A DNA stretch of 48,653 nucleotides from a virus, in the UHGV virus genome UHGV-1372840; one strand, written 5' to 3'. Shown piece after piece: positions 2,034 to 46,710 of this stretch. The position numbers and the translations under genes were made by a program. Under the pieces are notes generated by a model. The model made no database searches. It had not been told where the DNA came from and saw nothing but the letters and a program-made list of their open reading frames with translations. How positions within the stretch are numbered: position 1 is the first letter of the stretch; each line of letters opens with the position of its first letter.

Positions 2034-3122
2034 TTATTTAAGTTTACCAGTCTGACGCAGCAGTGCTTCTTGTGCGCGGGACAGTACAGGTTTTGCGTCG
2101 GCTACCGGCTGTTTGATGTCTTTAGCGCCATCTTTAGCCAGTTGCTCAAGCTGTGAGTCTACCACAGGTTTCACCGGTTCTTCCACAGCCATGTCGAAAG
2201 CGGCTTCAACATAGGCGGCAGATTTTTCGGCCCAGTCAACAGACGGACGTTTAACAGCGAGAGCGGCACGTTTGATTGCAACCGGGTCCATGCTGTCACA
2301 GGTGAATTCATCGCCAGCAACTTTACGCGCCGAGGAGGTAACACGTGCAATTGCTTCCACGCGTGCTTTCAGGGCTTCGTCGCTGCATTTGGTGGTCAGG
2401 TCGGCAACCTGTTCCAGTGCTGCGTCGAGTTGGGCCTGTACGGTTTCTTTGGCGGCTTCGGCGTCACTGACACGCTGTTCTAAGCGTTTGAACGCGTCCA
2501 CCACCGCAGCATCCGCCACATCAACTTTTAGCCCGGTGTCAGTGGTGATTTGATACATGGGTTTTTTCTCCATATTATCGAAGATACGCGCCATTGCACC
2601 CGCACGAGCACGGTCAACAATTGCAACGTGGTTAATTTTAATCTGAGTCTGTCGGAAGTCGTATGGTTCACCTTCCGGCGTTGTCCCTGGTGTATCATCA
2701 TACACCGCCGTGTAACCCGCTGACAACTCACACTTACCAGTTTCAACAGCCTTAATCGCGTCTTTATCCTTGATAACCATGTCCACAACGACGAAATCGC
2801 CATCCTGACGACCGACACTCGTTACAACACCAACGGAAGTGTTACGGTACGTGGAAGCATTGATAAGTGTAGGAGGATGGTTATTCGTGACATCTGCGCC
2901 GAGATAGCTCTGAAGTGATTCATTGTTGAACACTTCTTCGGCGGGACGGTACACACGGATAATGTCGTTCGGTGCGCGGTCTTTTAGCCCCAGTTCCGAA
3001 GCGAGATACTCCTGGATACCAGTACGAGCGGCTTTACCTGGCACACGCAGAAATCCCTCATCCGTGTAAACACGTTGGGAATTCAGTGCAAAACTTTTAC
3101 GGTCATTAATGGTAATTTGCAT
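2034..3122 (-). CDS. Putative prohead protease/scaffolding protein (DUF2213/XkdF-like N-domain plus coiled-coil C-terminus)
   Basis: 362 aa. N-terminal globular half, C-terminal Ala/Glu/Lys-rich predicted coiled coil (AEAAKETVQAQLDAALEQVADL...). Sits directly upstream of the decoration and capsid genes. Confidence 0.5.
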   Translation of the reverse strand: MQITINDRKSFALNSQRVYTDEGFLRVPGKAARTGIQEYLASELGLKDRAPNDIIRVYRPAEEVFNNESLQSYLGADVTNNHPPTLINASTYRNTSVGVVTSVGRQDGDFVVVDMVIKDKDAIKAVETGKCELSAGYTAVYDDTPGTTPEGEPYDFRQTQIKINHVAIVDRARAGAMARIFDNMEKKPMYQITTDTGLKVDVADAAVVDAFKRLEQRVSDAEAAKETVQAQLDAALEQVADLTTKCSDEALKARVEAIARVTSSARKVAGDEFTCDSMDPVAIKRAALAVKRPSVDWAEKSAAYVEAAFDMAVEEPVKPVVDSQLEQLAKDGAKDIKQPVADAKPVLSRAQEALLRQTGKLK

Positions 3123-5808: not shown

Positions 5809-5896
5809 AATTTACCTCTGGTCCGAAGGTGGTCAAAATAAAAAAAAAAAACGGCAAATAGTGACCAACTATCTTTCGGACGCCTCCTAGCCGTTT

Positions 5897-6688
5897 TTAC
5901 TTTTTCATTTTACTGTTTTTAATATGTTTTTCAACTTTAAAATCTGGTACAGCGATACTTACACATCTACAATTTATTGGTTGACCGGGAAAAGTAGGAA
6001 CACCATCTACAACCGGCAAATCATCCCATCGAAATACGCCCGGACCATATCCCACATCACGTTTAGCTACCTCTACGTGACTGTGACGTACCCGCTCATC
6101 GTGCGATGTGGTCCATTTAAAGTAATTTATTCCCGAATTAACCTGACGGATGCGGTTCATATCGCCCTGTATTTTACTGGTTTGATCCCTGGCAATTAAT
6201 TTAGCGCGACGTTCCGTGATACCAAACTGTTTAACGAGTGCTTCTTCAATGTAGCTGGGGCGCATACCGTTACGCATGTTGGTCATGACGATGTTCTGCA
6301 CCTGCTCCAGATACTGAGCCGGAATAGACTGAATGAGTTTAGCGTTCTGATATGATGCAGCGCTCAGATATTCCTGCAGCTGTGTATCGCCGCCGTACAG
6401 ATTGATGGCAAATGAGCGGGCGTTATCCTTTGCCGCAGTCTGTACAAACTGTGACGCGATGGTTTCAGCCTGGCGACGAGCAAATGCACCAAGCCACCGT
6501 GTGAGCAGCTGGTTAATTGCCGAGGTGATGGTGTCACTCCAGCCATCAGCCGTGTACTCCGGCGCAAGCTGTTTCACCAGTGGCACGATGTTGGCGTCCA
6601 CATCCTCACGAACAAGCCGGGCAACCTGTTTCAGCTGGCGATAATAATTTAGCTCTGTTTGTCGTGACATGCTTGACGGCCTCGTCAT
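5897..6688 (-). CDS. Head morphogenesis protein (SPP1 gp7 / Mu F-like)
   Basis: Follows the portal gene; Phage_Mu_F-like architecture and size. The track start at 6739 would be a TTG that reads through a + strand promoter, so the ATG at 6688 (MTRPSS) or 6670 is more plausible. Confidence 0.6.
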   Translation of the reverse strand: MTRPSSMSRQTELNYYRQLKQVARLVREDVDANIVPLVKQLAPEYTADGWSDTITSAINQLLTRWLGAFARRQAETIASQFVQTAAKDNARSFAINLYGGDTQLQEYLSAASYQNAKLIQSIPAQYLEQVQNIVMTNMRNGMRPSYIEEALVKQFGITERRAKLIARDQTSKIQGDMNRIRQVNSGINYFKWTTSHDERVRHSHVEVAKRDVGYGPGVFRWDDLPVVDGVPTFPGQPINCRCVSIAVPDFKVEKHIKNSKMKK

Positions 6689-10493: not shown

Positions 10494-10712
10494 CTATTTA
10501 CCTTTTCTCAAGTGTTGTTTGACATACGTACTTTTCATGATTTGAGCGAGATGACCGCCGTTACAGAACCTGTCCTGATAGACAATTTGCATTGCCCGAT
10601 ATGGTTCCACGCCGGATAAAACTAAGTTGCAAAATTCTACTCGGTGACTGAACGGTCTGTGCTTCGTCACTTTATCCGGCTTGCCGGTATGTAGATTAGT
10701 TTTCATGGTCAC
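10494..10712 (-). CDS. Hypothetical protein, first gene of the head operon
   Basis: 72 aa ORF coupled to the small terminase gene. Confidence 0.35.
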   Translation of the reverse strand: MTMKTNLHTGKPDKVTKHRPFSHRVEFCNLVLSGVEPYRAMQIVYQDRFCNGGHLAQIMKSTYVKQHLRKGK

Positions 10713-10801
10713 TCACCCGATTGTCTCCAATGCCACGATTTTACCATGACTGTATCGTCATTGCCACATACCCTGATGAAAGTGGTTCAGGGTATTTTTT
10801 C

Positions 10802-11002
10802 GGGTATGAAAAACTCCTTAGTTTTCTGTTACTTACTACTTATTACCCTTATACCCTTATAAAATAGTAATTAATATAGTAGTAAGATAGTAAAAGAATG
10901 TATATATACAGCATACAAACAGTAATAAGAGGAAAGGGAGAATATAGCAAGAATGTACGGGGTTTTCGGTTATGCGCGTAAGCTGCTGATTGTGAAAGTA
11001 AA
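10802..11002. repeat. Copy A of a roughly 200 bp direct repeat (second copy at 45758-45960)
   Basis: About 90% identical to 45758-45960, same orientation. AT-rich core with three TAGTAA repeats and a tandem TACCCTTAT pair. Lies in the divergent intergenic region upstream of the leftward head operon. Confidence 0.85.
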
Positions 11003-11072
11003 TTACCTACCCTGATGATTTACCATTTTCGGGTAAAATGAGGTATTGACACGGTAAACAACCCATGTAACA

Positions 11073-11699
11073 ATGTATAAATCAAATATACAGTATGTAG
11101 GATTTATACAAATGTACCACCTTAGAGAAAATTGCGATTGTAAAACGTTCCATGAAGACACGGGTCTTTGTACACTTTGTGCCCGATACAATCATGAGGA
11201 CTTCGTGAGACATTTCAAAAACAGAACCAATTCTGACGATGAACATGAGCAATGGTTACTCGACCAGTTGTGGAACAACCCGAATAATGGTCTCAGAATC
11301 GGCACCAAACGCATGTCGAAATGTGGTCACCCTGGCGTCTATCGCGGTAGTAAATGTGCGATATGCTCCAAGATTAGTAAAGACGCTAAAGCCTCTCAGT
11401 CGCTTCAAAAAAGCACTAACCATGTAGACACAATGCGTTTCACTCTTGAACAATTAAACGCAACTATTGAGGAAATGAAGCGCCAACGGAAAACACTGGA
11501 ACAGGCCATACAGTTGGCTGAGATGGGATTGAATATCGGCAACATCACTTTAACCACTGTCAAGATGAAAACACCACGTCAAATAGCTATTGAGGCGGGT
11601 CAGAAGTGGTACATGCCTTACGAACCCTGTAAAAACTGCAATACAATATCTGAACGTTATGTAGCAAATGGTCGCTGCCGCAATTGTGGAGGTAAATAA
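11073..11699 (+). CDS. Cys-rich zinc-ribbon protein with coiled-coil segment
   Basis: Three CxxC-type clusters (CDCK...CTLC, CGHP...CAIC, CKNC...CRNC) and a central heptad-rich stretch. Start uncertain (11073 or the internal M). Confidence 0.45.
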   Translation: MYKSNIQYVGFIQMYHLRENCDCKTFHEDTGLCTLCARYNHEDFVRHFKNRTNSDDEHEQWLLDQLWNNPNNGLRIGTKRMSKCGHPGVYRGSKCAICSKISKDAKASQSLQKSTNHVDTMRFTLEQLNATIEEMKRQRKTLEQAIQLAEMGLNIGNITLTTVKMKTPRQIAIEAGQKWYMPYEPCKNCNTISERYVANGRCRNCGGK

Positions 11700-13445: not shown

Positions 13446-13637
13446 TTAAGGTGCCTCATATAATGGTGTGGGGTCGCTATACTCTTTCAGTTTTGGGTCG
13501 CCAGCGTGAATTAGATAACCTTTATAGGTGATGTAAGCTACCGGATATTTGAATGTTTCCTCTAACTCAGCAACACGCGCCTCAGCCGCTAAACAGCGCT
13601 CCATCAACTGACAGTAACTCAGTGCTTCCATACCCAC
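13446..13637 (-). CDS. Hypothetical small protein
   Basis: 63 aa ORF in the leftward cassette. Confidence 0.35.
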   Translation of the reverse strand: MGMEALSYCQLMERCLAAEARVAELEETFKYPVAYITYKGYLIHAGDPKLKEYSDPTPLYEAP

Positions 13638-13866: not shown

Positions 13867-13895
13867 CAAAAAAAAAGCCCCGAAGGGCTTATTTA
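13867..13895. terminator. Rho-independent terminator after the primase-helicase gene
   Basis: A9-GCCC-cgaa-GGGC-TTATTT; reads as stem plus T9 on the - strand. Confidence 0.7.
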
Positions 13896-16177
13896 GTTTC
13901 CGCAAAGGCAATAGCACTCGTATCACCCTGTGCCGCCGCGTAATGGCGCGCCACGTCTGCTGCATTTGTGAGGTTAGCGTGAATGTGTCCAATCTTGATG
14001 TACAACCGTGGCTTACCACCGTCAATCATTATCACGTTATTCACGCGTCCATCCTTGAGCGCCGGGTGCCAGTCGTAACCTAGTTGACGCATCATGTCAC
14101 GACGTTTACCCACCGGTACAGCGCGGTCGGCACGCATCTGGCGCAACAGGTTGTCCAGTGCCTTACTGCTCACCCAACCACCCGCAAAGCCCTGACGACC
14201 CTCATCAATCGCTTCCATAATTTCCTGCTCAACACTGCCGAGTGATGCTGTCACAGCCTCGTGAGTACTGCTTGTTTCCGGAGCGCGCTGGCAATGTGTT
14301 GCCGGGTTAAATTGTGCGGGAATATCATAGTTCTCCAGATAATGCGTCACTGCTGCAAATCCGCCGCCACGTTTGAGCCAGTCGTACAGGTTGGGGAAGT
14401 AGTCGCCACCCATGCCATCACGCACAATGTCGATATGCTCCTGCTGCGCGGTGTAAAAGATGGCAAAGCGACGGTCATTAGCGGTCTTGCGCACAGCGTT
14501 CTTGTGGTTACTGTTGAACATGAAGTTGGCACACAGTCTGTGCATTACCTGGTCCTGCTGCATCGCACGTTTAGCGAGGTACTCACCGGTAATCATCGGC
14601 TTGAGTATTTCAATCAGCTCTAGTTTCTGCTCCGGAACGTAAATATCCTCCACGCCGATGAATATTTTATCGAATAACCATGCGTTGAACTTCTCACCAA
14701 TTTCCTGCGCTGGCGGCATGTGACTGTAACGTGAACCGACCGCTTCCATTACGCACAGTGTGAACAGTGTTTTACCGTTACCTTCGACGCCCTGCAGTAA
14801 TGGTGCCCATTTAAATTTAGTCCCCTTGTACTGTACACACGCCGCCATGTAGGACAACAGAATCTCACGGTCGCGCTCAACGGGTAACAGTTTGGCCAGA
14901 TGAGTGAGGAAAGGTGTCACATCACCCCGTGCGCTCGCCACCGTCACAGGTACGTATGCGTTGACATGACGCAGACCGTCTTCTTCGATAATGGCACCCT
15001 GCGGCAGGTCCGGACGGAATGTCGAGCGGTCAACCTTCGGGAACATGATGCACTGATTCTCGGTGAAGGCTTCAAAAGCCTTTTTGGTGGTCTTTTCGTT
15101 ACCGTCATCCAGTGCAAACACATAACCACCGTACATTGCATTAAACTGCTCGGACTTCAGCATTTGACCGTTAGGTGTGAGAATCCGGTGGCTGTCTGCC
15201 ACGTATACGCAGCCTTTGAAGTGGTCAACAAGCTGTGAGCCTCCAATGAATTGATACCCGCTTCGGATAACCGGTGCACCCGTCTCGACAACCTGCGCGG
15301 GAGTCACCAGTTCAATCGGTGCGCCGACGCTGTAATAAGTTGTAAGAAGTCCGGCGGCGTTGAGGATGGTGCGCTCCAGATACGACTTATTGGTGAACCA
15401 TTTATCTCTTTTAAGACCACTCTGTAGCATCAGCGATTTAGTTCTTTCGCAGTTCCCACCTGTCCACCATAGAAGCCGGGTGGCGAGAGATGAGTCGAGC
15501 GATGAACGGTCGTCGTCTTCCGATACCACACCATTCCACAGGTCTTTAAAAGTGGCCTTGCCGCCAAAAACAACCGAAACCCCCTCCTTAGCCGCACACG
15601 CTTTTTCGATGAGTTTCGCATCATCCTCAATCGGGTTACTACCCACCTGTGGCGAGTCTGTCCATTTCACCGACACCGTGGATTCTTCTTTCGGAAAATA
15701 GCGTGCAATTACTGTATTTAGCGCCCCCGTGGCATCGTGTTCCCATAACCCTTGCGCACTTGAACCAGTTAAGGCGACGAATCTTTCGGTGTGGTATAAC
15801 TCAATCCCCATCTGAACGTTTTTACAGGCGTGCTCAGGGATGGAAGAATATCGTCCAATGATGTGTAAACCGGTGCCACTCTGTGAAATTTCAACATAGC
15901 ACCCGGCGAAAGTCTGACACAGTTCCACGGCCAACGGAGACCATGTTCCGTCAATTAGACAATGGTCGATATCGATGAAGAAATATGGGTCTGTATCGGT
16001 GAACACAAATCCAACTCCGTCGGCACCCCGTGTGAGTGCGTCACCATACGTCAACCAGTCATTCGGGTTGGTTGTGGAACCGTGGGGCCGCTTGGTTGTT
16101 TTGTCACCCACTTTAACGAGTGAGTAAGGAATGTACTGTTTTCTCTCTGTAATCATCATTTCAGTAACCTCATGCAC
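13889..16177 (-). CDS. Primase-polymerase / D5-family helicase
   Basis: N-terminal bifunctional primase-polymerase-like region (FVFTDTDPYFFIDIDHC). C-terminal Walker A GVEGNGKT and P4/D5-type helicase region. Start may be 16159 (MMITER). Confidence 0.7.
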   Translation of the reverse strand: MHEVTEMMITERKQYIPYSLVKVGDKTTKRPHGSTTNPNDWLTYGDALTRGADGVGFVFTDTDPYFFIDIDHCLIDGTWSPLAVELCQTFAGCYVEISQSGTGLHIIGRYSSIPEHACKNVQMGIELYHTERFVALTGSSAQGLWEHDATGALNTVIARYFPKEESTVSVKWTDSPQVGSNPIEDDAKLIEKACAAKEGVSVVFGGKATFKDLWNGVVSEDDDRSSLDSSLATRLLWWTGGNCERTKSLMLQSGLKRDKWFTNKSYLERTILNAAGLLTTYYSVGAPIELVTPAQVVETGAPVIRSGYQFIGGSQLVDHFKGCVYVADSHRILTPNGQMLKSEQFNAMYGGYVFALDDGNEKTTKKAFEAFTENQCIMFPKVDRSTFRPDLPQGAIIEEDGLRHVNAYVPVTVASARGDVTPFLTHLAKLLPVERDREILLSYMAACVQYKGTKFKWAPLLQGVEGNGKTLFTLCVMEAVGSRYSHMPPAQEIGEKFNAWLFDKIFIGVEDIYVPEQKLELIEILKPMITGEYLAKRAMQQDQVMHRLCANFMFNSNHKNAVRKTANDRRFAIFYTAQQEHIDIVRDGMGGDYFPNLYDWLKRGGGFAAVTHYLENYDIPAQFNPATHCQRAPETSSTHEAVTASLGSVEQEIMEAIDEGRQGFAGGWVSSKALDNLLRQMRADRAVPVGKRRDMMRQLGYDWHPALKDGRVNNVIMIDGGKPRLYIKIGHIHANLTNAADVARHYAAAQGDTSAIAFAETK

Positions 16178-16252: not shown

Positions 16253-16570
16253 TTAAAGCAGGGTTGTTAACGCGCGGGTGCGTAACTCCAGTGGTGCAGA
16301 GTTGGCGATAGTGTCACCCAGCGCGATACCTTGTCCGATTAATTCGAGGTTTTCTTCTTCCACTGCTCGTTGCATCACTGCTTCACGAAGTGCGGACATC
16401 CTGACCCAGTGATGGTTAACGCTTCCCATCGCCACGCCAGCCTCGGCCGCAACACCATCGCGGGTAAGAGTACCAAAGCCGTCGCGCTGCGCCATCGTGT
16501 AAGCTACTTCCAGAATATGTTCTTTGCTCATAATTTCGGTTCCATTGGGTAATTTATTGCAGTATGACAC
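16253..16570 (-). CDS. TetR-like HTH DNA-binding protein (short)
   Basis: ILEVAYTMAQRDGFGTLTRDGVAAEAGVAMGSVNHHW follows the TetR_N pattern (ILdaA..Gf..tt...IA..aGvs.g.lyhhF). Only 105 aa. Confidence 0.45.
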   Translation of the reverse strand: MSYCNKLPNGTEIMSKEHILEVAYTMAQRDGFGTLTRDGVAAEAGVAMGSVNHHWVRMSALREAVMQRAVEEENLELIGQGIALGDTIANSAPLELRTRALTTLL

Positions 16571-20234: not shown

Positions 20235-21154
20235 TGAGTAATATCACATTAACCATCCCGAACGACGACCACATTGCGCTGCGTGCGTTTGGTAAAGCAC
20301 TGGAAGAAATGGCACTTGCGCACGGTGCGCCACTACGAGTTAACCCCCACGTGGACGTGGAAAAATTGCGTGAGACAATGGGGAATGCGGAACCAACGTA
20401 TATCGTTCCTGAAGTTGACACCACTGCACAACAGGTTGAGTCACTCGGCGCAACGCACATCATTACCGAGCAGAAATTAGTTGGTGGCCCCGTACATGTG
20501 GGTGACGGTAATTTCTCACAAGGATACGTCGCCACAGTCGAGGAAATTGCTGACCCCGTTGACTCAACTGGCACACCGTGGGACGAACGTATCCACTCCA
20601 CCAGTAAGGCGCTCAATGCGGACGGTACGTGGCGTCTGCGTCGTAAGCCGAAGGATATGGATGAACTGGAATGGGTGGCACTGATTGAGTCGGTTAAGGG
20701 TGAGTTGCATACTCAAACACCGGTAATGACTGATGAAGAAGTTAAAACCCTGGAACCCGTGGAAATTGGCGGACCGACACGGGAAGAAGTCGAACCACCT
20801 GTAACACCACCGGGCGATGATTTCCACACTGACGAGCAAACCGTTGCCGGTATTCCGCCACTTCCTGTACCGCCGCCGGTAGTTGTTGCACCACCTGTAC
20901 CGGAATTTGATGACGGCGTTCCTTTCCCACCATCGGGCACTGTCTCTCCAGCGTTAGAGCGTATGGCGGACCACACTGTATGGGACTTCCCGCGCCTCAT
21001 GACCTTCCTGACCGAGCGTCACGGTAAGATTGATGTGGCAACGGTGAACACGCTGCTGGCGCAGGACGGTATGTCGTCGGTGCAGGAACTGAACGCCCAC
21101 CCGGATAAAATCGGTCCGTTCGTGGCACGTGTTAAAGCGCATTTGGGGGAGTGA
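20235..21154 (+). CDS. Hypothetical early protein with DSTGTPWDERIH motif and Pro-rich linker
   Basis: GGAGGACAGAGAGAC then ATG at 20235. The track N-terminal extension reads through the promoter region and is rejected. Confidence 0.5.
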
Positions 21155-21159
21155 GTTGT

Positions 21160-21675
21160 ATGAAGGAGAAAGCGTTAACACAAGAAACACTCAAGGCTCT
21201 TCTCCATTATGACCCCGTCACAGGGGTCTTTACTTGGTTGGTGAGTCCAAGTTTCACTGTCAAAGCTGGGGATAAGGCCGGGAATGTCACGCCTAAAGGT
21301 TACTGGCAAATCGGGATAAATAGAAAGCGGTATTTGGCACATCGCTTAGCGTGGCTCTACGTACACGGAGTTTTTCCGGAAAAAGACGTTGACCACATTA
21401 ACCGTAATCCAGCAGACAACCGGATTGTTAATTTGAGAGATGTCAGCAATCAATTTAATTTATTTAACACTTCGAAACAAAAAGATAATACCTCCGGTTA
21501 CAAAGGGGTGACTTTCATACCAAAGGTTAAAAAGTGGCAAGCCCAAATCAGAATGAATAGTAAGAAAGTGTACTTAGGTACATTTGATACACCCGAAAGA
21601 GCTGATATAGCACACAGAATTGCTGAATATTTTAGAGAGAAATATTATGACCACTCAACTACCAAAGGTGTCTGA
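21160..21675 (+). CDS. HNH homing endonuclease with AP2 DNA-binding domain
   Basis: DHINRNPADNRIVNLR HNH core plus GVTF...KKWQAQI...VYLGTFDTPERA AP2 domain. Confidence 0.7.
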   Translation: MKEKALTQETLKALLHYDPVTGVFTWLVSPSFTVKAGDKAGNVTPKGYWQIGINRKRYLAHRLAWLYVHGVFPEKDVDHINRNPADNRIVNLRDVSNQFNLFNTSKQKDNTSGYKGVTFIPKVKKWQAQIRMNSKKVYLGTFDTPERADIAHRIAEYFREKYYDHSTTKGV

Positions 21676-24032: not shown

Positions 24033-25556
24033 ATGCACTATTTATCGAAATGCGAAGACGCAACTTGCGGTAAAACTTATCCCGCTGACCTCCACAATTG
24101 CCCTTACTGTGGGGCTGATTCAGCGTTTTCCAGCGTTGCACCACTGGACCCACGGGACTGGGGATACGATTTAGAGACATACAAGAACATCTTCACCGCC
24201 TCATTTATTCACGCTGCGACGGGTATGGAGTTAGTCTTCGAAATCAGTGACCGTAAAAACGAGCAGTCGCAATTAATCGAATTCGTGTTCAACCTGGGAC
24301 GCAGTAAGGCCCGTGGGATTGGATTTAATAACCTGGCATTCGACTATCCGGTGCTACACTACGTGGTCAATGCACCGGGTTGTACACTGGAACAGATTTA
24401 TGCGAAGGCGCAATCACAGATTAAGCCCGAAGGTCAGTGGCCAGAAATCATATGGGACCGCGACCAGATTTTCGAGCAGATTGATCTGTACAAAATAAAC
24501 CACTTCGACAATAAAGCCCGACGTACCAGCCTGAAGGCGTTAGAGGTAGGCATGCGGTCCCCCAACGTAAAAGACCTACCATTCCCGGTCGGAATGGTGT
24601 TGAACGATGCGCAGAAAGATGTCCTCATCGCATACAACAAGCACGACGTCCGCGAAACACTTAAATTCTTCGTGCGTTCACTCGACAAAATTCATTTCCG
24701 CGAGGAACTGACAAAGCAATACGGACGTAACTTTATGAACCACGCCGACACTAAAATCGGCAAAGATATATTCGTTCACGAACTGGAGAAGGCCGGGGTA
24801 GATTGCTCGGGAGTAACTATTCGTGAACGTATCGCGCTTGCGGATTGCATACCCCCTTACATCAAATTTGAACGACCGGAGTTCAATCAAATTCTGGAAC
24901 GCATTCGTGGGGTTGTACTCACGAAGAAGCAGCAGGACGAATTACTGACCACAAAAGGTGTGTTTAGTGATATGACCGTCATGGTCGATGGTGTCGAATA
25001 TTCGTTCGGGTTGGGAGGTATCCATAGTGGTATTCCGAACTACGTTGTGCATTCCGGCAACGGTAAGTTATTGAAAAATAAAGATGTTACAAGCATGTAC
25101 CCGTCCATTAGTATAAAGAACAGGTACTATCCGGAACACCTTAGTGAAACTTTTTGTGATGTATATGAACAACTGTTCATTCGTCGCCGTGATGCTAAGC
25201 GAGCGGGAGATAAAACAGTTGATGCCGCATTGAAACTCGCCCTCAACGGCACCTTCGGAAACATGGGGAGTAAATTCAGCCCATTCTGCGACCACAAGTG
25301 TCTTCTGAGTATCACTATTACGGGACAACTTTGTTTGGCAATGTTGATTGATAGATTGATAACGCGAGTTCCAGACATGATTATTCCGCAATCGAATACT
25401 GACGGGGCTGTCATGTACTACCCCGAACAATATGATTCGTTAGTCGAATCTATTTGTGCGGAATGGGAGAAAGACACAATGTTGGGACTTGAGACGGACG
25501 AAGTAAAATCTCTTTATCAGCGTGATGTGAACAATTACATAATGACCATTGGTTGA
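24033..25556 (+). CDS. Family B DNA polymerase, N-terminal fragment (zinc finger, 3'-5' exonuclease, palm)
   Basis: Exo I DLET, Exo II FNNLAFDYP, Exo III YNKHD. Pol motif A DVTSMYPSI, motif B KLALNGTFG, motif C NTDG. Stops about 50 aa after motif C. Confidence 0.75.
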   Translation: MHYLSKCEDATCGKTYPADLHNCPYCGADSAFSSVAPLDPRDWGYDLETYKNIFTASFIHAATGMELVFEISDRKNEQSQLIEFVFNLGRSKARGIGFNNLAFDYPVLHYVVNAPGCTLEQIYAKAQSQIKPEGQWPEIIWDRDQIFEQIDLYKINHFDNKARRTSLKALEVGMRSPNVKDLPFPVGMVLNDAQKDVLIAYNKHDVRETLKFFVRSLDKIHFREELTKQYGRNFMNHADTKIGKDIFVHELEKAGVDCSGVTIRERIALADCIPPYIKFERPEFNQILERIRGVVLTKKQQDELLTTKGVFSDMTVMVDGVEYSFGLGGIHSGIPNYVVHSGNGKLLKNKDVTSMYPSISIKNRYYPEHLSETFCDVYEQLFIRRRDAKRAGDKTVDAALKLALNGTFGNMGSKFSPFCDHKCLLSITITGQLCLAMLIDRLITRVPDMIIPQSNTDGAVMYYPEQYDSLVESICAEWEKDTMLGLETDEVKSLYQRDVNNYIMTIG

Positions 25557-25582
25557 CATCGGGCAAAAGAAAATTTAGGATG
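25554..25582 (+). promoter_or_regulatory. Promoter for the inserted HNH gene
   Basis: TTGACA, 17 nt, TAGGAT, overlapping the end of the polymerase fragment. Confidence 0.4.
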
Positions 25583-25608
25583 GTATAAACAAATCGCAAC
25601 GGTATGAG

Positions 25609-26157
25609 ATGATGATGTGGAAATTGAAATGCAGAGAAGAAATGTCTCTGGAGTTATTAAAAGAACATTTCACTTATAATCCCACGACTGGGGAATTCGC
25701 AAGAATAAAGAGATACGATAGTTATGGTAAACCCAAATCAATATATTCGCCAATAAGGGACTGTAATAATAGGGGCTATTACTGGGCGAATTGTTTTGGG
25801 TTGATGTTTCTCGTACATCGCCTCGTGTGGTTATATATGACGGGTGAACATCCGAATGGTGAAATTGACCATATCAATGGTAATCGAAAGGATAACCGCT
25901 GGGAAAATTTACGTCTTGTTACGGCTTTTGAGAATGCTAGAAATCAGGGTGAACGCAAAGATAACACCTCCGGGTGCAGAGGCGTTACAAGAAATGGTGC
26001 GGGATGGTTGGTACGTATATCACATGAAGGGGTTCGTTATCACTTGGGCACATTCAGAGATAAGAATGAGGCAATCGCCGTTCGCAAGCAAGCTGAGCGC
26101 GATTTAAATTATCACCCCAATCACGCAAAGCGGGAGTCATGGAAATATGAAAATTAA
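25609..26157 (+). CDS. HNH-AP2 homing endonuclease inserted in the DNA polymerase gene
   Basis: DHINGNRKDNRWENLR HNH core plus GVTRNGAGWLVRISHEGVRYHLGTFRDKNEA AP2 domain. Confidence 0.7.
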   Translation: MMMWKLKCREEMSLELLKEHFTYNPTTGEFARIKRYDSYGKPKSIYSPIRDCNNRGYYWANCFGLMFLVHRLVWLYMTGEHPNGEIDHINGNRKDNRWENLRLVTAFENARNQGERKDNTSGCRGVTRNGAGWLVRISHEGVRYHLGTFRDKNEAIAVRKQAERDLNYHPNHAKRESWKYEN

Positions 26158-26731
26158 AAGAAAAGGGTGTTACGAGTACAAATACCAGTGGCATCAAGAC
26201 CCATCGGCGATGATTGTTGCCCGCGCAGCCGAAGCCGCCCTCGTACACGGTGAGGACATCCGCACGTTCATCACGCGGCACCGTGACCCGTTTGACTTTA
26301 TGCTGCGAGCAAAAGTGCCTCGTTCGGCACGTCTGGTGATGCGTTGGCCTGAGTGGGGCGCTGAACAGGAGATGCAGAATACCACACGTGTGTTTATCTC
26401 GCGTAATGGTGGGTCACTGGTTAAGCTGTTACCACCAACCGGTACACCAGGTACATGGAAGCGCAAGAATGGTGTCAAGGACGATGTGTACAATGCGGTA
26501 ATGCGTGAGATTACAGGGCAACCTGGAGACCTCGACAGCATTGGTACACCGTGGGATGAGCGTATCCACACGAAGAGTCGCAGTAAGCACGATGCAGTGC
26601 GCGAAACAAGTATGTGTGCAGGATGGAAGGTGACAGAGTGTGCAGACGCTAAGGATTTCGACTGGGGCAGTCTGGACTACGAATATTATGTGAAAGAAGT
26701 GGAAAAGTTAGTTTTACCGTTGTTGAGGTGA
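26147..26731 (+). CDS. Family B DNA polymerase, C-terminal (thumb) fragment
   Basis: Begins KIKRKGCYEYK, which resembles the post-motif-C KKRY region. Own GGAG RBS; start overlaps the HNH stop. Confidence 0.5.
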   Translation: MKIKRKGCYEYKYQWHQDPSAMIVARAAEAALVHGEDIRTFITRHRDPFDFMLRAKVPRSARLVMRWPEWGAEQEMQNTTRVFISRNGGSLVKLLPPTGTPGTWKRKNGVKDDVYNAVMREITGQPGDLDSIGTPWDERIHTKSRSKHDAVRETSMCAGWKVTECADAKDFDWGSLDYEYYVKEVEKLVLPLLR

Positions 26732-39844: not shown

Positions 39845-39968
39845 TTTATTCCCCTCAGTTAGATATCATCAATTCTATCGTTAATCGTGACCATAAACAA
39901 ATCGATTTGAACGGGTCGCGATTTTCATCGAAAGTACACTCACACGAACAAGAGAGGAGATACAAAAT

Positions 39969-40685
39969 ATGAATGACTTAATGACTGTCGACGATGTACA
40001 AACGATGTCCAGCCGTGAGATTGCGGAATTGACAGGGAAGAACCACGCGGATGTGTGTCGGGATGTTCGCGTGATGCTAGCGGGTCTGTATGGTGGTCAG
40101 GCTTCCGAATACGTGCGTAAAGCAAATCTGCTTCACATTACAAATCAAGGGGTTAATTGTGAGAGGTACGACAACCAGAACCCAAACGCTTGGGAGTATC
40201 TATTAGACAGGCGACATACGGAAATTTTAGTCACCGGGTACGACGTGAAGCGAAGAGCTGCTGTAATCGACAGGTGGTTCGAGCTAGAAAGTAATAAAAG
40301 TAAACTATCGTTACCACAAAACTATATTCAAGCACTTGAAGCGCTGCTGGAAAGCGAGAAAGAGAAAGAACGTCTCGCACTAGAGAACAAGGAGATGACA
40401 CCAAAAGCAGACGTCTACGACCGGATTGTAGAACGCAATGGTCTCTATAACGCCACTCAGATCGCCCAGAAGTTCGGACAATCAGCGATATGGCTAAACA
40501 AACAACTAGCCTCGATGGACGTCTACAATCGCTCCGTGAAGCGTGGACGTGTATTTCAGCAATGGTTCATCGATAGAGGGTACGGGATAATGCGGGAGAC
40601 AGAGAATGGGTTCTCGCAACCCATGTTCTATGCTGAAGGTGAAATGTGGATCGTTAGAAAATTATCCGAAGAAGGTTTGATTTAA
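39969..40685 (+). CDS. Rha/KilAC antirepressor-like protein, copy 1
   Basis: N-terminal MSSREIAELTGKNHADVCRDVR is the Phage_pRha signature; C-terminal KilAC/ANT-type domain. Confidence 0.65.
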   Translation: MNDLMTVDDVQTMSSREIAELTGKNHADVCRDVRVMLAGLYGGQASEYVRKANLLHITNQGVNCERYDNQNPNAWEYLLDRRHTEILVTGYDVKRRAAVIDRWFELESNKSKLSLPQNYIQALEALLESEKEKERLALENKEMTPKADVYDRIVERNGLYNATQIAQKFGQSAIWLNKQLASMDVYNRSVKRGRVFQQWFIDRGYGIMRETENGFSQPMFYAEGEMWIVRKLSEEGLI

Positions 40686-40960: not shown

Positions 40961-41076
40961 CTAAGAGGTCAATTGTGATCAATCACATCGTTAATCGTGA
41001 TCATGAATAAATCGATTCGAACGGGTCGTGATTTTTATCGAAACTACACTCACACGAACAAGAGGGGAGAACAGAG

Positions 41077-41793
41077 ATGAACGATTTAGTAAACACAAAA
41101 TCGGAACTAACCATGTCTAGCCGCGAGATTGCGACGCTAGTTGAGAAGCGTCACGACAATGTTTGCAGAGACATTCGCTCAATGCTCTGCGCTCTACATG
41201 GTGGTCACGATGAAGATTATGTTCGTAACTCAAATTTGAGTTACGTTACGAATCATGGGGTTACGTGCATTCAGTATGATACCACCAACCCAAACGCATG
41301 GGAGTACCGGCTGGATAAAGATAACACCATCTGCCTGGTGTCAGGGTATAACGCTCAATTACGAATGAAGATAATCAAGCGTTGGCAAGAGCTGGAATCA
41401 CGGGTGAATACACCCGCACTACCACAAAACTATATTCAAGCACTTGAAGCGCTGCTGGAAAGCGAGAAAGAGAAAGAACGTCTCGCACTAGAGAACAAGG
41501 AGATGACACCAAAAGCAGACGTCTACGACCGGATTGTAGAACGCAATGGTCTCTATAACGCCACTCAGATCGCCCAGAAGTTCGGACAATCAGCGATATG
41601 GCTAAACAAACAACTAGCCTCGATGGACGTCTACAATCGCTCCGTGAAGCGTGGACGTGTATTTCAGCAATGGTTCATCGATAGAGGGTACGGGATAATG
41701 CGGGAGACAGAGAATGGGTTCTCGCAACCCATGTTCTATGCTGAAGGTGAAATGTGGATCGTTAGAAAATTATCCGAAGAAGGTTTGATTTAG
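41077..41793 (+). CDS. Rha/KilAC antirepressor-like protein, copy 2
   Basis: Same length as copy 1. The C-terminal 120 aa are identical at the nucleotide level; the N-terminal Rha domain has diverged. Confidence 0.65.
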   Translation: MNDLVNTKSELTMSSREIATLVEKRHDNVCRDIRSMLCALHGGHDEDYVRNSNLSYVTNHGVTCIQYDTTNPNAWEYRLDKDNTICLVSGYNAQLRMKIIKRWQELESRVNTPALPQNYIQALEALLESEKEKERLALENKEMTPKADVYDRIVERNGLYNATQIAQKFGQSAIWLNKQLASMDVYNRSVKRGRVFQQWFIDRGYGIMRETENGFSQPMFYAEGEMWIVRKLSEEGLI

Positions 41794-44359: not shown

Positions 44360-45099
44360 AAGATAATCCCCAATCGTTTAAGATTTAAAACACATCGCTC
44401 GTGTCTCCAAATCTTATGCACATACGTAGGATTCATACCGTATTTAGCGGCTATTTCAGAAACAGGAACATGACCTTTAGACGTATAGACGTCGTATATG
44501 ACCTCATCGGAATACTTACTCTTTCGGTCGCCGTTCTCCCAACTTCTGGAAAGTGCATCAGATTTTTTCTTTCTGGTAGCATCGGTGTCTTTTTTACCGG
44601 TGTGTGCAGCTATCTGTCGGTTACGGTATGTTTCATCATTCCATTTTGCCAGCAACCCGTCACTTATTTTACTCCTGACAACGTCATTATCCATTCCCTT
44701 ACGGGTCGCTTCAGATATGGCTAACCTTTCGGATTCATTGTTGAATCTAATTTTCTGTACTTTTGAGTTATGCGCTCTCATTTCATCATTAGGCGTATAG
44801 CCGGGACACCCAGCGCCACCAGTACATATGTTAACCAAAATCCCGCCGTCTGAGATTCTACCGAAAAGTGATATCAGACTTTTCTCAGCATCGAAAGCAT
44901 CCGATTTATTCTCATAAGTCCCAATTATACGGTAGGAGAGACTGAGACCTTTCTCACGATGTTCATCCACTATTTTCTGAACTTCCGGTCTACCACCTCT
45001 CTTTCCAGAAAAATGCTGTTGGGGCCTATCTTCCCTACCCGCCCCAACATAAAACGGAATCCCATCGTGGTTCATTAGCACGTATGTTACATATTTCAT
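44356..45099 (-). CDS. GIY-YIG homing endonuclease with NUMOD-like C-terminal repeats
   Basis: YVTYVLMNHDGIPFYVGAG...R...E core; repeated K-S-D-x-L-x-x-x-W-E NUMOD3-like motifs; C-terminal HTH. Confidence 0.65.
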   Translation of the reverse strand: MKYVTYVLMNHDGIPFYVGAGREDRPQQHFSGKRGGRPEVQKIVDEHREKGLSLSYRIIGTYENKSDAFDAEKSLISLFGRISDGGILVNICTGGAGCPGYTPNDEMRAHNSKVQKIRFNNESERLAISEATRKGMDNDVVRSKISDGLLAKWNDETYRNRQIAAHTGKKDTDATRKKKSDALSRSWENGDRKSKYSDEVIYDVYTSKGHVPVSEIAAKYGMNPTYVHKIWRHERCVLNLKRLGIIL

Positions 45100-45596
45100 A
45101 ATCCACCGTCCGGCTTTTCACTTGTCACCTTGTATGTTATGGATTGTAACAAAGAACCTGTATCAATTAAAGGATTGTCCGAACCTTTCTGTTCGATTGT
45201 GTAATCGCTGTTCGGTGGCGTGCGAAGGTCAGTCATGTACTGCTGCACCGCACCGGCTGCGAATGCGCCCACTTGTTCAAGCACATGGTCAAGCGGTAAA
45301 TCATTAGCCACGCCGTGAGCGATGGTGTCCACGATGTCCTGCTTACCGCTCTGTACACCGGGTATCAGCCAGGGGCGCGGTGGAATAGGTGCGGGATTAC
45401 CGTATAGCTTGTTATTCGGGTTACCGTAATTTAGCAATGCGCCAAGCTGTGCGTTAGTGATTCCCGAGTCAGGATGTTCACCCGCGTCCGAATGGATTCC
45501 GACAGTCACAGTCTTCTGACTGGCTTTAGCGTATTGCTCCAGTTTCGAACGTATTGCCTGTTTGGCTTGCCGCAGCGCTTTGATGTTGACCGACAT
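45096..45596 (-). CDS. Virion morphogenesis / head completion protein
   Basis: 166 aa; first gene of the tail/neck operon; GAGGAGGG RBS. Confidence 0.4.
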   Translation of the reverse strand: MSVNIKALRQAKQAIRSKLEQYAKASQKTVTVGIHSDAGEHPDSGITNAQLGALLNYGNPNNKLYGNPAPIPPRPWLIPGVQSGKQDIVDTIAHGVANDLPLDHVLEQVGAFAAGAVQQYMTDLRTPPNSDYTIEQKGSDNPLIDTGSLLQSITYKVTSEKPDGGL

Positions 45597-45757
45597 CGCG
45601 TACCCTCCTCACGTTTGTCAAGACATTATCACACAACGCCACAATAAAGCCACAGAATGCGGGTTTCGGAGTAAAAGCAGTACGATTCACTACCTTTTCG
45701 TTCGGAAGCCAGTGTTTTATGTCAATACCCTTAATACCCCCATCCATAATCCTCTGT

Positions 45758-45960
45758 GGGGTATGAAAAACTCCTTAGTTTTCATTACTATATATTACTA
45801 TACCCCTATACCCCTATAAAATAGTAATTAATATAGTAGTAAGATAGTAAAAGAATGTATATATACAGCATACAAACAGTAATAAAAGAGAAGGGAGAAT
45901 ATAGCAAGAATGTACGGGGTTTTCGGTTATGCGCGTAAGCTGCTGATTGTGAAAGTAAAA
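45758..45960. repeat. Copy B of the roughly 200 bp direct repeat
   Basis: See copy A; upstream of the leftward tail operon. Confidence 0.85.
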
Positions 45961-46038
45961 TTCATACCCCGTGGTTGGGGTTGGATGAGGGTATTTTCGG
46001 GTAATCGTTCATTTTTTTGTACAGAATAAAATTACAGT

Positions 46039-46168
46039 AATTATACGGTAGTACACTATAATTATATTGTACTACAAAGTTGTTCACTTTTTGATCGGAA
46101 TGAAATTATACGGTAGTACACTATAATTATATTGTACTACAAAGTTGTTCACTTTTTGATCGGAATGA
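46039..46168. repeat. Tandem 2 x 65 bp direct repeat, each with an internal palindrome GTAGTACA-N13-GTACTAC
   Basis: Exact duplication of ATTATACGGTAGTACACTATAATTATATTGTACTACAAAGTTGTTCACTTTTTGATCGGAATGAA. Confidence 0.85.
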
Positions 46169-46186
46169 AATTAGCCTCGACGTCAT

Positions 46187-46216
46187 CGTGTGGTATTGAC
46201 GGGTTCGTCAACCATT
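46187..46216 (+). promoter_or_regulatory. Promoter with perfect palindrome TTGACGggttCGTCAA
   Basis: -35 46187-46192, 17 nt, -10 TACACT. Confidence 0.5.
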
Positions 46217-46259
46217 GATACACTCAGTACACGAATTAGAGTGAGAGGGTTTATAAATT

Positions 46260-46559
46260 ATGGGAAGCCTTGTTGAAGATATCCTGCGTCATGTCCCCAC
46301 GAAACAATGGCGTAAGAAGTGTGACAGGATTGCGTCGCGTGAGTTACATCTCGCACGAGTTCCAGGGATTCATCACAGGTATGGTAAGTGGGAGGCAGTG
46401 GTCTTCTACAGGAATGTCACGCTGACGATCGGTTGTTTCAATACTCCACATCGCGCGTTGTTGGCAAGAAAACTGTGGTACTTCTGGCGTGAGCGCGGAT
46501 TCACTCCGCAGGAGATACCGAAAGGTCCAAAACGCGAACCATATTCGAGGTCACGATGA
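46260..46559 (+). CDS. Small AP2-like DNA-binding protein
   Basis: GIHHRYGKWEAVVFYRNVTLTIGCFNTPHRALLARKLWYF resembles an AP2 fold (YrGV..GKW.A.i.....lG.F.t.e.A). Confidence 0.4.
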   Translation: MGSLVEDILRHVPTKQWRKKCDRIASRELHLARVPGIHHRYGKWEAVVFYRNVTLTIGCFNTPHRALLARKLWYFWRERGFTPQEIPKGPKREPYSRSR

Positions 46560-46690
46560 GAACAAAACACTATCGTAGCTTCTTCATTATCAGAGGTATC
46601 GTGGTCGAGGATGAAGGGTATTTATGTGCTGACAAGGTTGTCATGAAGTATTACGGTCGTCACTATGTGGACAGGATTGGTAAATAAAGC
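46556..46690 (+). CDS. Small hypothetical protein (44 aa)
   Basis: ATGA-coupled to the upstream gene. Confidence 0.25.
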
Positions 46691-46710
46691 CCCGTGAGGG
46701 GCTCATATTA
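46686..46710. terminator. Terminator hairpin GCCCC-gtga-GGGGC
   Basis: Followed by TTTATTTA on the - strand. Confidence 0.55.

Follow-up and report, generated by a model that had tools for sequence, protein, structure and literature searches.

The satellite phage P4 carries two separated cis elements, ori and crr, which have a short iteron in common and are bound by alpha, a fusion of an archaeo-eukaryotic primase (AEP) with an SF3 helicase that possesses a defined C-terminal origin-binding domain. In P1 pac, SPP1 pac (pacL-pacC-pacR) and lambda cosB, clusters of short sites flank a spacer, and integration host factor (IHF) is involved. Phage SPP1 has two similarly organised origins, oriL and oriR, which are separated by about 13 kb of the circular map and combine direct repeats with an AT-rich unwinding element; oriR resides in the late region, beside moron genes (PMC6316719). 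In phage phi29, the regulators p4 and p6 act on a control region with the promoters A2c/A2b and A3 (PMC3100819). Here, we analyze the virus genome UHGV-1372840, a stretch of 48,653 nt (hereafter the window) that represents a near-complete genome of a Jedunavirus-like Klebsiella myophage. It contains two copies, A and B, of a non-coding repeat module, each located at the start of a late operon. Tentatively, and with a probability of roughly 0.38, we read this pair as an origin-type assembly site that resembles SPP1 oriL/oriR.

Two copies of one module precede the head and the tail operon

A sequence-only reading of the window had placed the second copy of a 200-bp repeat at positions 45,758 to 45,960 and had described it as followed within 80 bp by a tandem, iteron-like block and then by a promoter with a palindromic operator. 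This ORF-free (open reading frame-free) stack was put forward as a candidate origin of replication or control region. The position of copy B was right within a few bases. On the plus strand, copy B (45759-45969) aligns with copy A (10802-11012) at 92.1% identity over 214 columns with gaps, including an ungapped stretch of 169 nt with 95% identity (10844-11012 = 45801-45969). Beyond the repeat, similarity is weaker on either side and confined to the level of motifs. Repeat, tandem block and promoter features are not chance matches. In 71 related GenBank records, the repeat was located at 156 places in all, about twice per genome among the relatives listed. Seeming third places in the linear records that were checked (KpV79, SBP) reflect a record start inside a copy, and the Geezett record splits the repeat in a similar way, with its origin within copy A. 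The GenBank record closest to the region around copy B is RCIP0113 (96% identity there), and the IMG/VR contig L009 is 100% identical to the repeat query (279/281 nt).

The gene order of the window is the same as in JD001, KpV79, PEAT2, ZCEC13, Geezett and SBP. The minus strand carries the late, structural genes, which are broken up by small plus-strand gene clusters. Copy A, which is upstream of ORF72, is situated between the leftward operon for the small terminase (terS, identified by PF03592 with E 2.7e-9) and head packaging and a rightward two-gene operon. Copy B is flanked by the leftward Neck1/tail operon and by a further small operon that runs rightward. The tail operon starts with a gene (45096..45596, minus strand) for a Neck1/tail-completion protein (phrog_222 'tail completion or Neck1', E 4.6e-45). 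A distance of 13.7 kb separates the two copies on the circular map, and the replication-gene operon ends about 1 kb from copy A. In all genomes examined, A is upstream of terS/head and B is upstream of Neck1/tail, in the same orientation. This sample comprised JD001, PEAT2, KpV79, ZCEC13, Geezett, SBP, vB_KsaM-C1 and three further GenBank loci, together with 19 Neck1 loci and 18 terS loci from IMG/VR; in the IMG/VR loci of close relatives, the repeat lies directly upstream of the respective gene.

Arrays of short sites flank an AT-rich core

The anatomy of the module was derived from an alignment of the A and B copies of seven genomes. In most genomes, the full repeat spans about 330 bp and reaches from the -35 element of a leftward promoter to the -35 element (TTGAC) of a rightward promoter. 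It begins with an outer-left cluster, TACCCCG-N12-CGGGGTA-N6-CGGGGTA, which is followed by about 37 nt with A- and T-tracts, by two inner-left sites, TACCC[C/T], with a period of 8-9 nt, by the AT-rich core and by a purine-rich run. An inner-right CGGGGT with a degenerate second site comes next and is separated by about 45 nt from the outer-right cluster, CACCCCG-N6-CGGGTAT-N2-CGGGGTA. With about nine short sites per module, in an arrangement that is conserved at the sequence level, the element has the repeated short sites that are typical of origins. When ten diverse modules were compared with the genome, GGGGTA/TACCCC proved 24-fold and ACCCCG/CGGGGT 20-fold enriched. Sites are present on both sides of the core in every lineage, and two convergent sites at a distance of 43-45 nt form a pair in each arm, with an A/T-tract in the middle of the left-arm pair and an IHF-like site in the middle of the right-arm pair. 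The inverted repeats within the module always pair copies of one motif, while their partners and spacings change; they have the look of a binding-site array and not of a defined hairpin.

In copy B, the inner-left sites (45801..45814, minus strand) are TACCCC at 45801 and 45809, with an 8-nt period, and directly adjoin the AT-rich core. An equivalent pair exists in every lineage, including vB_KsaM-C1 (TACCCCGATACCCCG). The inner-right sites (45915..45929, plus strand) consist of CGGGGT and the degenerate TTTTCGGTTA; their equivalent in vB_KsaM-C1 is CGGGGTTTTGGGTA in both copies. The IHF-like site AATCAGCAGCTTA (45936..45948, minus strand) deviates at one position from the consensus WATCAANNNNTTR. 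When no more than one mismatch is allowed, the IHF consensus AATCA[G/T/A]NNNNTTA is matched exactly once in every canonical right arm, and always at the same place. Its consensus positions are fixed while the N positions vary between lineages, and the match is perfect in copy B of vB_KsaM-C1 and in the IMG/VR contig L058. Such conservation is the pattern that would be expected of a real IHF site. The outer-right cluster (45963..46003, plus strand) comprises TACCCCG (45965-45971), GGGGT (45977-45981), GGGTAT (45989-45994) and TTTTCGGGTA (45994-46003). The outer-left palindrome of copy A, ATACCCTGA-N10-TCAGGGTAT (10768..10795), is a variant of TACCCCG-N12-CGGGGTA in which both half-sites are changed. 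In copy B, a lineage-specific replacement of about 105-118 nt (45654..45758) takes the place of the palindrome TACCCCG-N12-CGGGGTA of other genomes. It is unrelated in sequence, is shared by RCIP0113, pKp383 and others and still contains TACCC (45726) and TACCCCC (45735). An inverted repeat of 14 nt connects this replacement (45733-45746) with the outer-right cluster (45982-45995).

Two further motifs were considered and dismissed. A DnaA-box-like sequence at the left of B copies, GTATCCACA, is absent from vB_KsaM-C1 and overlaps the -35 element of the neck promoter. The primase-polymerase (prim-pol) of NrS-1 recognizes TTTGGTTA and GTG[A/G] as primase sites (PMC8718748). In copy B, TTTCGGTTA (45920-45929) and GTGA (45951-45954) resemble these sequences. 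The former is the degenerate second site copy, neither is kept in L057, L058 and vB_KsaM-C1, and the likeness is probably coincidental.

The AT-rich core together with the purine-rich run (45815..45914) is depleted of C on the plus strand. The cores of A and B are the two most AT-rich islands of the window at lengths of both 60 and 100 nt (0.83 and 0.82 AT; mean 0.51). That of copy B ranks second, with 0.82 AT over 60 nt and 0.78 over 100 nt, and third place is taken by the 65-bp tandem block described below. Across lineages, the core comprises 78-119 nt at 73-83% AT. Its length between the inner sites is 78, 91, 101-107 or 117-119 nt, with no helical phasing, and indels gather here (12.8 gapped columns vs less than one in the arms). 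From lineage to lineage, the core sequence is replaced, and AT-richness and strand polarity are kept. The plus strand is 60-73% purine in every lineage, nearly free of C and has a GC skew of +0.36 to +1.0; copy B has a GC skew of +0.57 and a purine fraction of 0.72, and both cores of the window fall within the top 0.2% of all 110-nt segments for GC skew. The site arrays are therefore adjoined by an AT-rich region of low stability and unconstrained sequence, as is the case at origins, and this variation is what an unwinding element would show and a phased loop would not.

The design persists in distant relatives

Two IMG/VR contigs, L057 and L058, whose TerS proteins are 59% and 51% identical to that of the window, and phage vB_KsaM-C1 (ON807605) have near-zero nucleotide similarity to the repeat of the window and the same plan, with arrays of CGGGGTA/TACCCCG, the IHF-like site and a C-depleted, AT-rich core. 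The copies in vB_KsaM-C1 reside upstream of terS and the neck gene, 14.3 kb apart. They share just two stretches, of 30 and 52 nt, and both consist of TACCCCGATACCCCG, about 100 nt of AT-rich DNA and then CGGGGTTTTGGGTA. As the design is kept in this phage despite the divergence of A and B, we conclude that selection acts on the design and that gene conversion is not the only force that maintains it. Searches for homologues of the module in plasmids and E. coli genomes found none, and a search with a Neck1 profile for more distant B loci yielded nothing new.

Each copy has the other as its closest relative in ZCEC13 and SBP, with 99-100% identity, and in Geezett, with 90%. The same is true of only one copy in JD001 (93%) and in contig 034683 (89%). 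In three genomes (PEAT2 and the contigs 051106 and 066185), the identity of A and B is 54-70%; here, the right arm of A is replaced, and different genomes have A alleles in common. Thus, mosaic exchange takes place as well as gene conversion. The canonical right arm with its inner-right and IHF-like sites is present in copy B of every genome with a complete B that was inspected, and not always in copy A. In the lineage of the window, some 110 nt lie between copy B and its left-hand promoter and some 200 nt between it and the right-hand one, and copy B is still 92-95% identical to copy A. That it has not decayed in spite of this separation argues for a function that does not require contact with those promoters.

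Promoter-like sites border the module

A candidate promoter of the neck/tail operon (45625..45653, minus strand), as read from the sequence, consists of a -35 element GTGGCT (45648-45653), a 17-nt spacer and the extended -10 element TGTGATAAT (45625-45633), which is kept in all B copies. A simple promoter scan did not flag this site in the window; it did flag the homologous site in ZCEC13 (TGGATA-17-GATAAT with TG). The candidate promoter of the terS operon is GTGGCA-18-TAAAAT with TG (10738..10767, minus strand). Its -35 element adjoins the outermost site of copy A, and this juxtaposition is kept in L057 and vB_KsaM-C1. At the right edge of copy A, a rightward promoter, TTGACA-17-AACAAT with TG, is found at 11046..11074 (plus strand). 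Divergent promoter-like sites are thus present at both borders of the module, with temporal classes that are assigned from gene function alone. In Jedunavirus, L057 and vB_KsaM-C1, the outermost CGGGGTA is only 1-4 nt away from a weak leftward -35 element. A fixed spacing between site and promoter does not hold for copy B in the lineage of the window, where insertions are present on both sides. Three other leftward late-gene blocks were checked, and no module was found upstream of them.

The inner-left sites form part of the spacer of another leftward promoter-like element. This element reads TTAACG-17-TATAGT in vB_KsaM-C1 (L083 39610-39638); its counterpart in the window (around 45795-45835, minus strand) matches the consensus at 8 of 12 positions, and the depositors of KpV79 annotated two promoters there (record positions 13482-13538, L001 1534-1590).

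The tandem block and the palindromic promoter are separate elements

The direct repeats to the right of copy B were confirmed as two perfect units of 65 bp that begin 69 nt after the copy. The complete array (46007..46173, plus strand) consists of a diverged partial unit (46007-46038), the two perfect units (46039-46168) and the beginning of one more; Tandem Repeats Finder (TRF) reported 2.1 copies with 100% matches and a score of 270. Each unit is built around an inverted repeat, GTAGTACA-N12-TGTACTAC, with TATAAT on both strands of the spacer, and within the window this pattern occurs only in the array units (2 matches vs 0.12 expected). The array is present in 26 of about 71 related records, all of them Klebsiella phages, and varies from one unit in JD001 over two in the window and KpV79 and three in L027 to four in L009/L045, which in the region compared is nearly identical to the window. 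Geezett, SBP, ZCEC13, PEAT2, vB_KsaM-C1 and L085 lack the array, and in these genomes the palindromic promoter directly adjoins the repeat. As L085 has the same downstream gene as the window, for a 99-aa protein, without the array, the array is not needed for that gene. The sequence-only reading had regarded this block as iteron-like, and this did not hold up. Iterons would be shared by relatives with the same replicon, and the block is not. It does resemble the iteron arrays of plasmid and lambdoid origins in that its units are arranged head to tail beside AT-rich DNA and vary in copy number. It differs in that the unit is three times as long as a usual iteron, in that all units of one genome are identical, in that most of the clade lacks the block and in that each unit is centered on one palindrome in the manner of an operator. 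The unit looks more like a duplicated operator or promoter than like an iteron, and the block is a separate, younger and unstable lineage-specific insertion between module and promoter.

The promoter of the small rightward operon (46196..46224, plus strand) was located where it had been proposed. It reads TTGACG-17-TACACT, with the -10 element TACACT at 46219-46224, and its -35 element TTGACG is one half of the perfect palindrome TTGACGGGTTCGTCAA (46196-46211). With at most two mismatches, TTGACG-N4-CGTCAA occurs 15 times in the window versus 3.0 times expected, a number that none of 100 shuffled sequences reached. Behind most of these palindromes, at a distance of about 7 nt, stands a -10-like hexamer, and most of them lie ahead of genes of the early and replication regions on either strand; 16-nt sites are located at 3122, 4530, 6673, 13842, 16574, 17577, 20114, 20171, 22917, 35106 and 46196. 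The site at 46196-46224 has all of these properties, namely a perfect palindrome, TACACT behind it and a position upstream of a gene, and is to be regarded, from its sequence features, as an ordinary member of a genome-wide family and not as a locus-specific element. One family site lies just upstream of a gene for a TetR_N protein (16253-16570), which is a candidate binder of the family, and vB_KsaM-C1 has the family too, in the form of a 48-nt repeat that occurs four times (L083 11398, 13937, 30047 and 43218). What had been described as a dense stack of regulatory DNA is thus composed of three things that differ in age and generality and do not form one device, and the 65-bp block and the palindromic promoter are not to be counted as evidence for an origin. 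The proposal of a control region was borne out in that the DNA is non-coding, conserved across the phage clade, bordered by divergent promoter-like sites and equipped with a repeated short motif.

A possible origin or transcription switch

The architecture, duplication, conservation and composition of the module are established, as are its non-coding and non-RNA character, the enrichment of its motif and the promoter-like sites at its borders. From these features, we infer protein binding, the use of IHF, melting and a link to replication. In the reading that we tentatively favor, copy B would be one of two paralogous protein-DNA assembly modules of 210-330 bp that are not, or little, transcribed. 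The site arrays would serve as binding sites for a protein of the phage, possibly the prim-pol/SF3-helicase (13889-16177) or the 208-aa Zn-ribbon protein encoded beside copy A. Host IHF would bend the right arm, and the AT-rich core would melt under the negative supercoiling that stems from the divergent flanking promoters and would then admit the helicase-primase. Because the canonical right arm is kept in every complete B that was inspected and is replaced in several A copies, copy B may be the main origin, with copy A as a secondary or protein-binding-only site, as oriR in SPP1. An origin is in line with site arrays that flank the most melt-prone DNA of the genome, with a core that is free in sequence and length, with the unphased distance between the arms, with the conserved polarity of the core and with the IHF-like site. 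It is also in line with the absence of the module from the three other leftward late-gene blocks and with the persistence of copy B at a distance from both promoters in the lineage of the window. Furthermore, the phage has replication machinery of its own, including the NrS-1-like prim-pol/SF3-helicase.

Several observations weigh against an origin. Origins are usually, though not universally, located in or next to replication genes, whereas both copies head late structural operons, which is the position that a transcription switch would predict. In several diverged lineages, the outermost sites adjoin the flanking -35 hexamers, which suggests promoter control, and the best-conserved block of all is the left arm of copy A, beside the terS promoter (0.886 mean pairwise identity). 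Copy A of PEAT2, 051106 and 066185, with its right arm replaced, cannot be a full copy of the function of B. The cumulative GC skew has its minimum near 20 kb, between divergent replication-gene operons, at another plausible origin site; as a means of mapping an origin, the skew proved uninformative, as it follows gene orientation. The 208-aa candidate binder is without a recognizable fold. An origin, as proposed earlier, is still a reasonable candidate and narrowly our first choice: the AT-rich core between site arrays fits, and the position at late-operon starts with sites at -35 elements fits a switch about equally well. From sequence alone, we weigh the two nearly equally.

The switch is accordingly the most serious rival and a real possibility. 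There would be one early/late switch per large late operon, in which a regulator on the CGGGGTA arrays, IHF and the flexible core fold the DNA between the divergent promoters, such that the rightward early promoter is repressed and the leftward head or tail promoter is activated or de-repressed, comparable to the action of phi29 p4/p6 on A2c/A2b and A3. The invariable positions and orientation of A and B in every genome examined are readily accounted for in this way, as are a repeat that extends from the leftward to the rightward -35 element, outermost sites 1-4 nt from the weak -35 elements of leftward extended -10 promoters in Jedunavirus, L057 and vB_KsaM-C1, the strong conservation of the left arm of copy A and the leftward promoter-like element around the inner-left sites in vB_KsaM-C1, where KpV79 has annotated promoters. 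The control region of phi29 provides a precedent (PMC3100819). On the other hand, the element is not general at late promoters, as the three other late-gene blocks lack it, and in the lineage of the window insertions part copy B from both promoters with no decay of the module. The distance between the arms varies by non-integral helical turns, which is awkward for a folded complex of two arms, and a switch requires neither the extreme AT-richness of the core nor its polarity. Moreover, promoters with extended -10 elements, such as those of the late operons, usually need no activator, and the temporal classes on which the idea is built follow from gene function only. Both functions could also be combined, although we consider this a long shot. 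The copies would then be dual-purpose hubs, where one protein on the CGGGGTA arrays opens the core for the prim-pol/helicase and where the resulting complex, fork or R-loop turns on the head and tail operons. If true, this would be a replication-licensed late switch in a phage without late machinery of the T4 type, and gene conversion would keep the copies matched because both answer to one protein.

The remaining explanations fare less well. A boundary sequence without function, kept alike by gene conversion and serving at most as a homology anchor for the swapping of accessory cassettes to its right, would agree with the mosaic of A/B identities (99-100% in ZCEC13 and SBP vs 54-70% in PEAT2, 051106 and 066185), with the shared A alleles and with the differences between phages in the genes to the right of copy B. 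We nevertheless deem it unlikely, as the motif arrangement, the polar AT-rich core and the IHF-like site persist in vB_KsaM-C1, L057 and L058 in the absence of similarity or conversion, and selection therefore acts on the design itself. An improbable alternative is a pac site, with small-terminase sites that flank an AT-rich cleavage zone plus an IHF site, copy A being the working site and copy B a second or vestigial one. Copy A does lie directly upstream of the terS operon, and the layout of sites, spacer, sites and an IHF-like element resembles P1 pac and lambda cosB. A pac site would be a single site next to or within terS, which applies to copy A and not to copy B, and it is B, 13.7 kb from terS, that is better conserved, whereas A has lost its right arm and IHF-like site in several genomes. 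Genome termini inside the repeat were likewise dismissed. The records of KpV79, SBP and Geezett begin or end there, but in different copies, and IMG/VR loci of related phages often end inside the repeat (L029, L034, L035, L037, L039, L040, L042, L050, L051 and L013-L016). Contigs with such ends measure 33-35 kb or 11-14 kb and so correspond in length to the two segments between the repeats. Because of these sizes, and because the copies concerned differ by record, the ends are explained as assembly breaks. For a close relative, IME346, the absence of fixed termini has been reported (PMC9007800). The 11.5-kb contig L010 has the right flank of copy B fused to the left flank of copy A and represents a genuine recombination circle or else a chimera assembled through the repeat.

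Least credible, and already largely refuted, is a small RNA or small protein encoded by the repeat. It was considered since the module commonly has an ATG behind a purine-rich, Shine-Dalgarno-like run, with a nearly invariant block after the ATG within Jedunavirus. The ORF in question, MYGVFGYARKLL... (MYGVF..., from 45911), encodes 39 aa in B, 20 aa in A, 7 aa in L057 and an unrelated sequence in L058, has no ATG in vB_KsaM-C1 and accumulates substitutions without synonymous bias. As stated in the earlier reading, the region lacks larger ORFs: none of at least 50 aa lies wholly within 45820-46259, and two that overlap the left edge, 45526..45747 (minus strand) and 45562..45819 (plus strand), were judged spurious. 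At gathering thresholds, Rfam gave no matches in the whole window; in the region of copy B, with E values up to 5, just sub-threshold matches of microRNA type appeared, all on the tandem hairpins. Predicted RNA folds of both arms, on both strands, were no better than those of shuffled sequences (z -1.4 to +1.3), and the inverted repeats have changing partners and spacings.

Candidate binding proteins and neighboring genes

The prim-pol/SF3-helicase (13889-16177) is homologous to the prim-pol of NrS-1 and its helicase ring. The second candidate, a putative motif binder, is the 208-aa Zn-ribbon/coiled-coil protein (11073..11699, plus strand), whose gene is transcribed away from copy A and adjoins it in all lineages, including L057, L058 and vB_KsaM-C1. 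Full-length homologues are restricted to the clade, the AlphaFold2 (AF2) model has a pLDDT of 73, and Foldseek, a sequence search of the PDB and Pfam gave no match. Residues ~148-189 form a C-terminal Zn-ribbon module of about 40 aa, PRQxAIxxGxKWYMPYEPCxxC....ERYVANGRCRNCG. In a library of 1.8 billion proteins, over 100 unannotated ones, 200-430 aa in length, contain three to six tandem copies of this module; those tested as examples matched no Pfam family and gave no functional clue.

To the right of copy B, the genes vary between phages and include the gene for the 99-aa protein, a dUTPase, a methyltransferase and others. In the window, the 99-aa protein (46260..46559, plus strand; phrog_9632, function unknown) has no Pfam match. 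The core of its AF2 model (residues ~33-80) is composed of three strands followed by a helix, with AtERF1 (1gcc; probability 0.99, E 0.08) and the TEM1 AP2 domain as top Foldseek matches. The model suggests a stand-alone AP2-like phage protein with an AP2/ERF-like, DNA-binding fold. As a general binder of CGGGGTA it was rejected, since its gene is missing from many relatives that retain the module. ORF72 (10494-10712) was considered as a second terS-like DNA-binding protein and was also rejected, as it has no similarity to terS and no Pfam match. A terminator-like GC hairpin, AGCCCCGTGAGGGGCT (46688..46703), is located between the converging rightward operon and the head-gene cluster.

Further features were noted elsewhere in the window. 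An ORF with an HNH_3 endonuclease domain (25609-26157) splits the DNA polymerase gene (24033-26731) into parts of 507 and 194 aa, and a second ORF with HNH_3 plus AP2 resides in the replication operon (21151-21675); both are probably homing endonucleases. Two tandem Rha/ANT-KilAC genes of 238 aa each (39969-40685 and 41077-41793) lie inside the tail-gene cluster. They share 300 nt with 100% identity (40312-40611 = 41420-41719) and an upstream region of 93 nt with 88% identity (39868-39960 / 40978-41070), which points to a recent duplication or conversion. An imperfect inverted repeat of 24 nt (5832-5855 / 5890-5913) with a run of twelve A is embedded in an AT-rich island at 5.4-6.0 kb that also contains several short direct repeats.

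Comparison with known systems

Jedunaviruses are widely collected as therapeutic Klebsiella phages. In the papers on Jedunavirus, JD001 and vB_KsaM-C1 that were searched, neither the repeat nor any origin, packaging site or switch of late genes is mentioned. The module is the best-defined cis-acting element of Jedunavirus genomes, the place to seek the origin or the late switch, and a handle for engineering. It also alters the picture that is obtained from metagenomes, since short-read assemblies come apart at the repeat, into pieces of about 35 kb and 14 kb, and the repeat can also give rise to chimeric small 'circles'.

With regard to packaging sites, copy A shares its position beside the small-terminase gene with P1 pac, SPP1 pac and lambda cosB; these systems differ in that a second, better-conserved copy is present here far from terS. 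P4 ori/crr and the Jedunavirus module are alike in that two separated elements have a common short site and in that a primase-helicase of the same broad class is present. A sequence search of solved structures with the primase of the window retrieved NrS-1-type primases only and no match to P4 alpha. The phi29 region A2c/A2b/A3 with p4/p6 is similar in that divergent promoters, here of putative early and late class, lie a few hundred bp apart with several inverted-repeat regulator sites, here likewise putative, and AT-rich, bendable DNA between them, and in that a higher-order folded complex has been proposed as the switch (PMC3100819). Unlike in phi29, there are two regions instead of one, the sites are G-rich and not based on A-tracts, and the distance between the arms is unphased; homologues of p4 and p6 were not recognized, with no search aimed at them.

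The closest parallel for the reading that we favor is provided by SPP1 oriL/oriR. In both cases, there are two elements per genome, about 13 kb apart in SPP1 and 13.7 kb apart here, which consist of short repeated sites and an AT-rich region, and in both cases one of them (here copy B) resides in the late region beside accessory genes and between transcription signals. The differences are that binding of gp38 and oriL-dependent replication have been demonstrated in SPP1, while the present comparison is drawn from sequence alone, that oriL is located inside the initiator gene while neither copy here is inside a gene, and that SPP1 uses a DnaB-type helicase with a loader in place of an NrS-1-like prim-pol/SF3 helicase. 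The site sequences are unrelated. If the pair is indeed a paired origin, it would represent a second, unrelated arrangement of the oriL/oriR type, in this case with a prim-pol/SF3-helicase replisome. What is unusual about the module is the conserved pair that is kept alike by conversion, the two-arm plan with convergent site pairs and the polar core; in its mode of action, it would work like a known type of cis element, either an origin with site arrays and an AT-rich region or a switch between divergent promoters.

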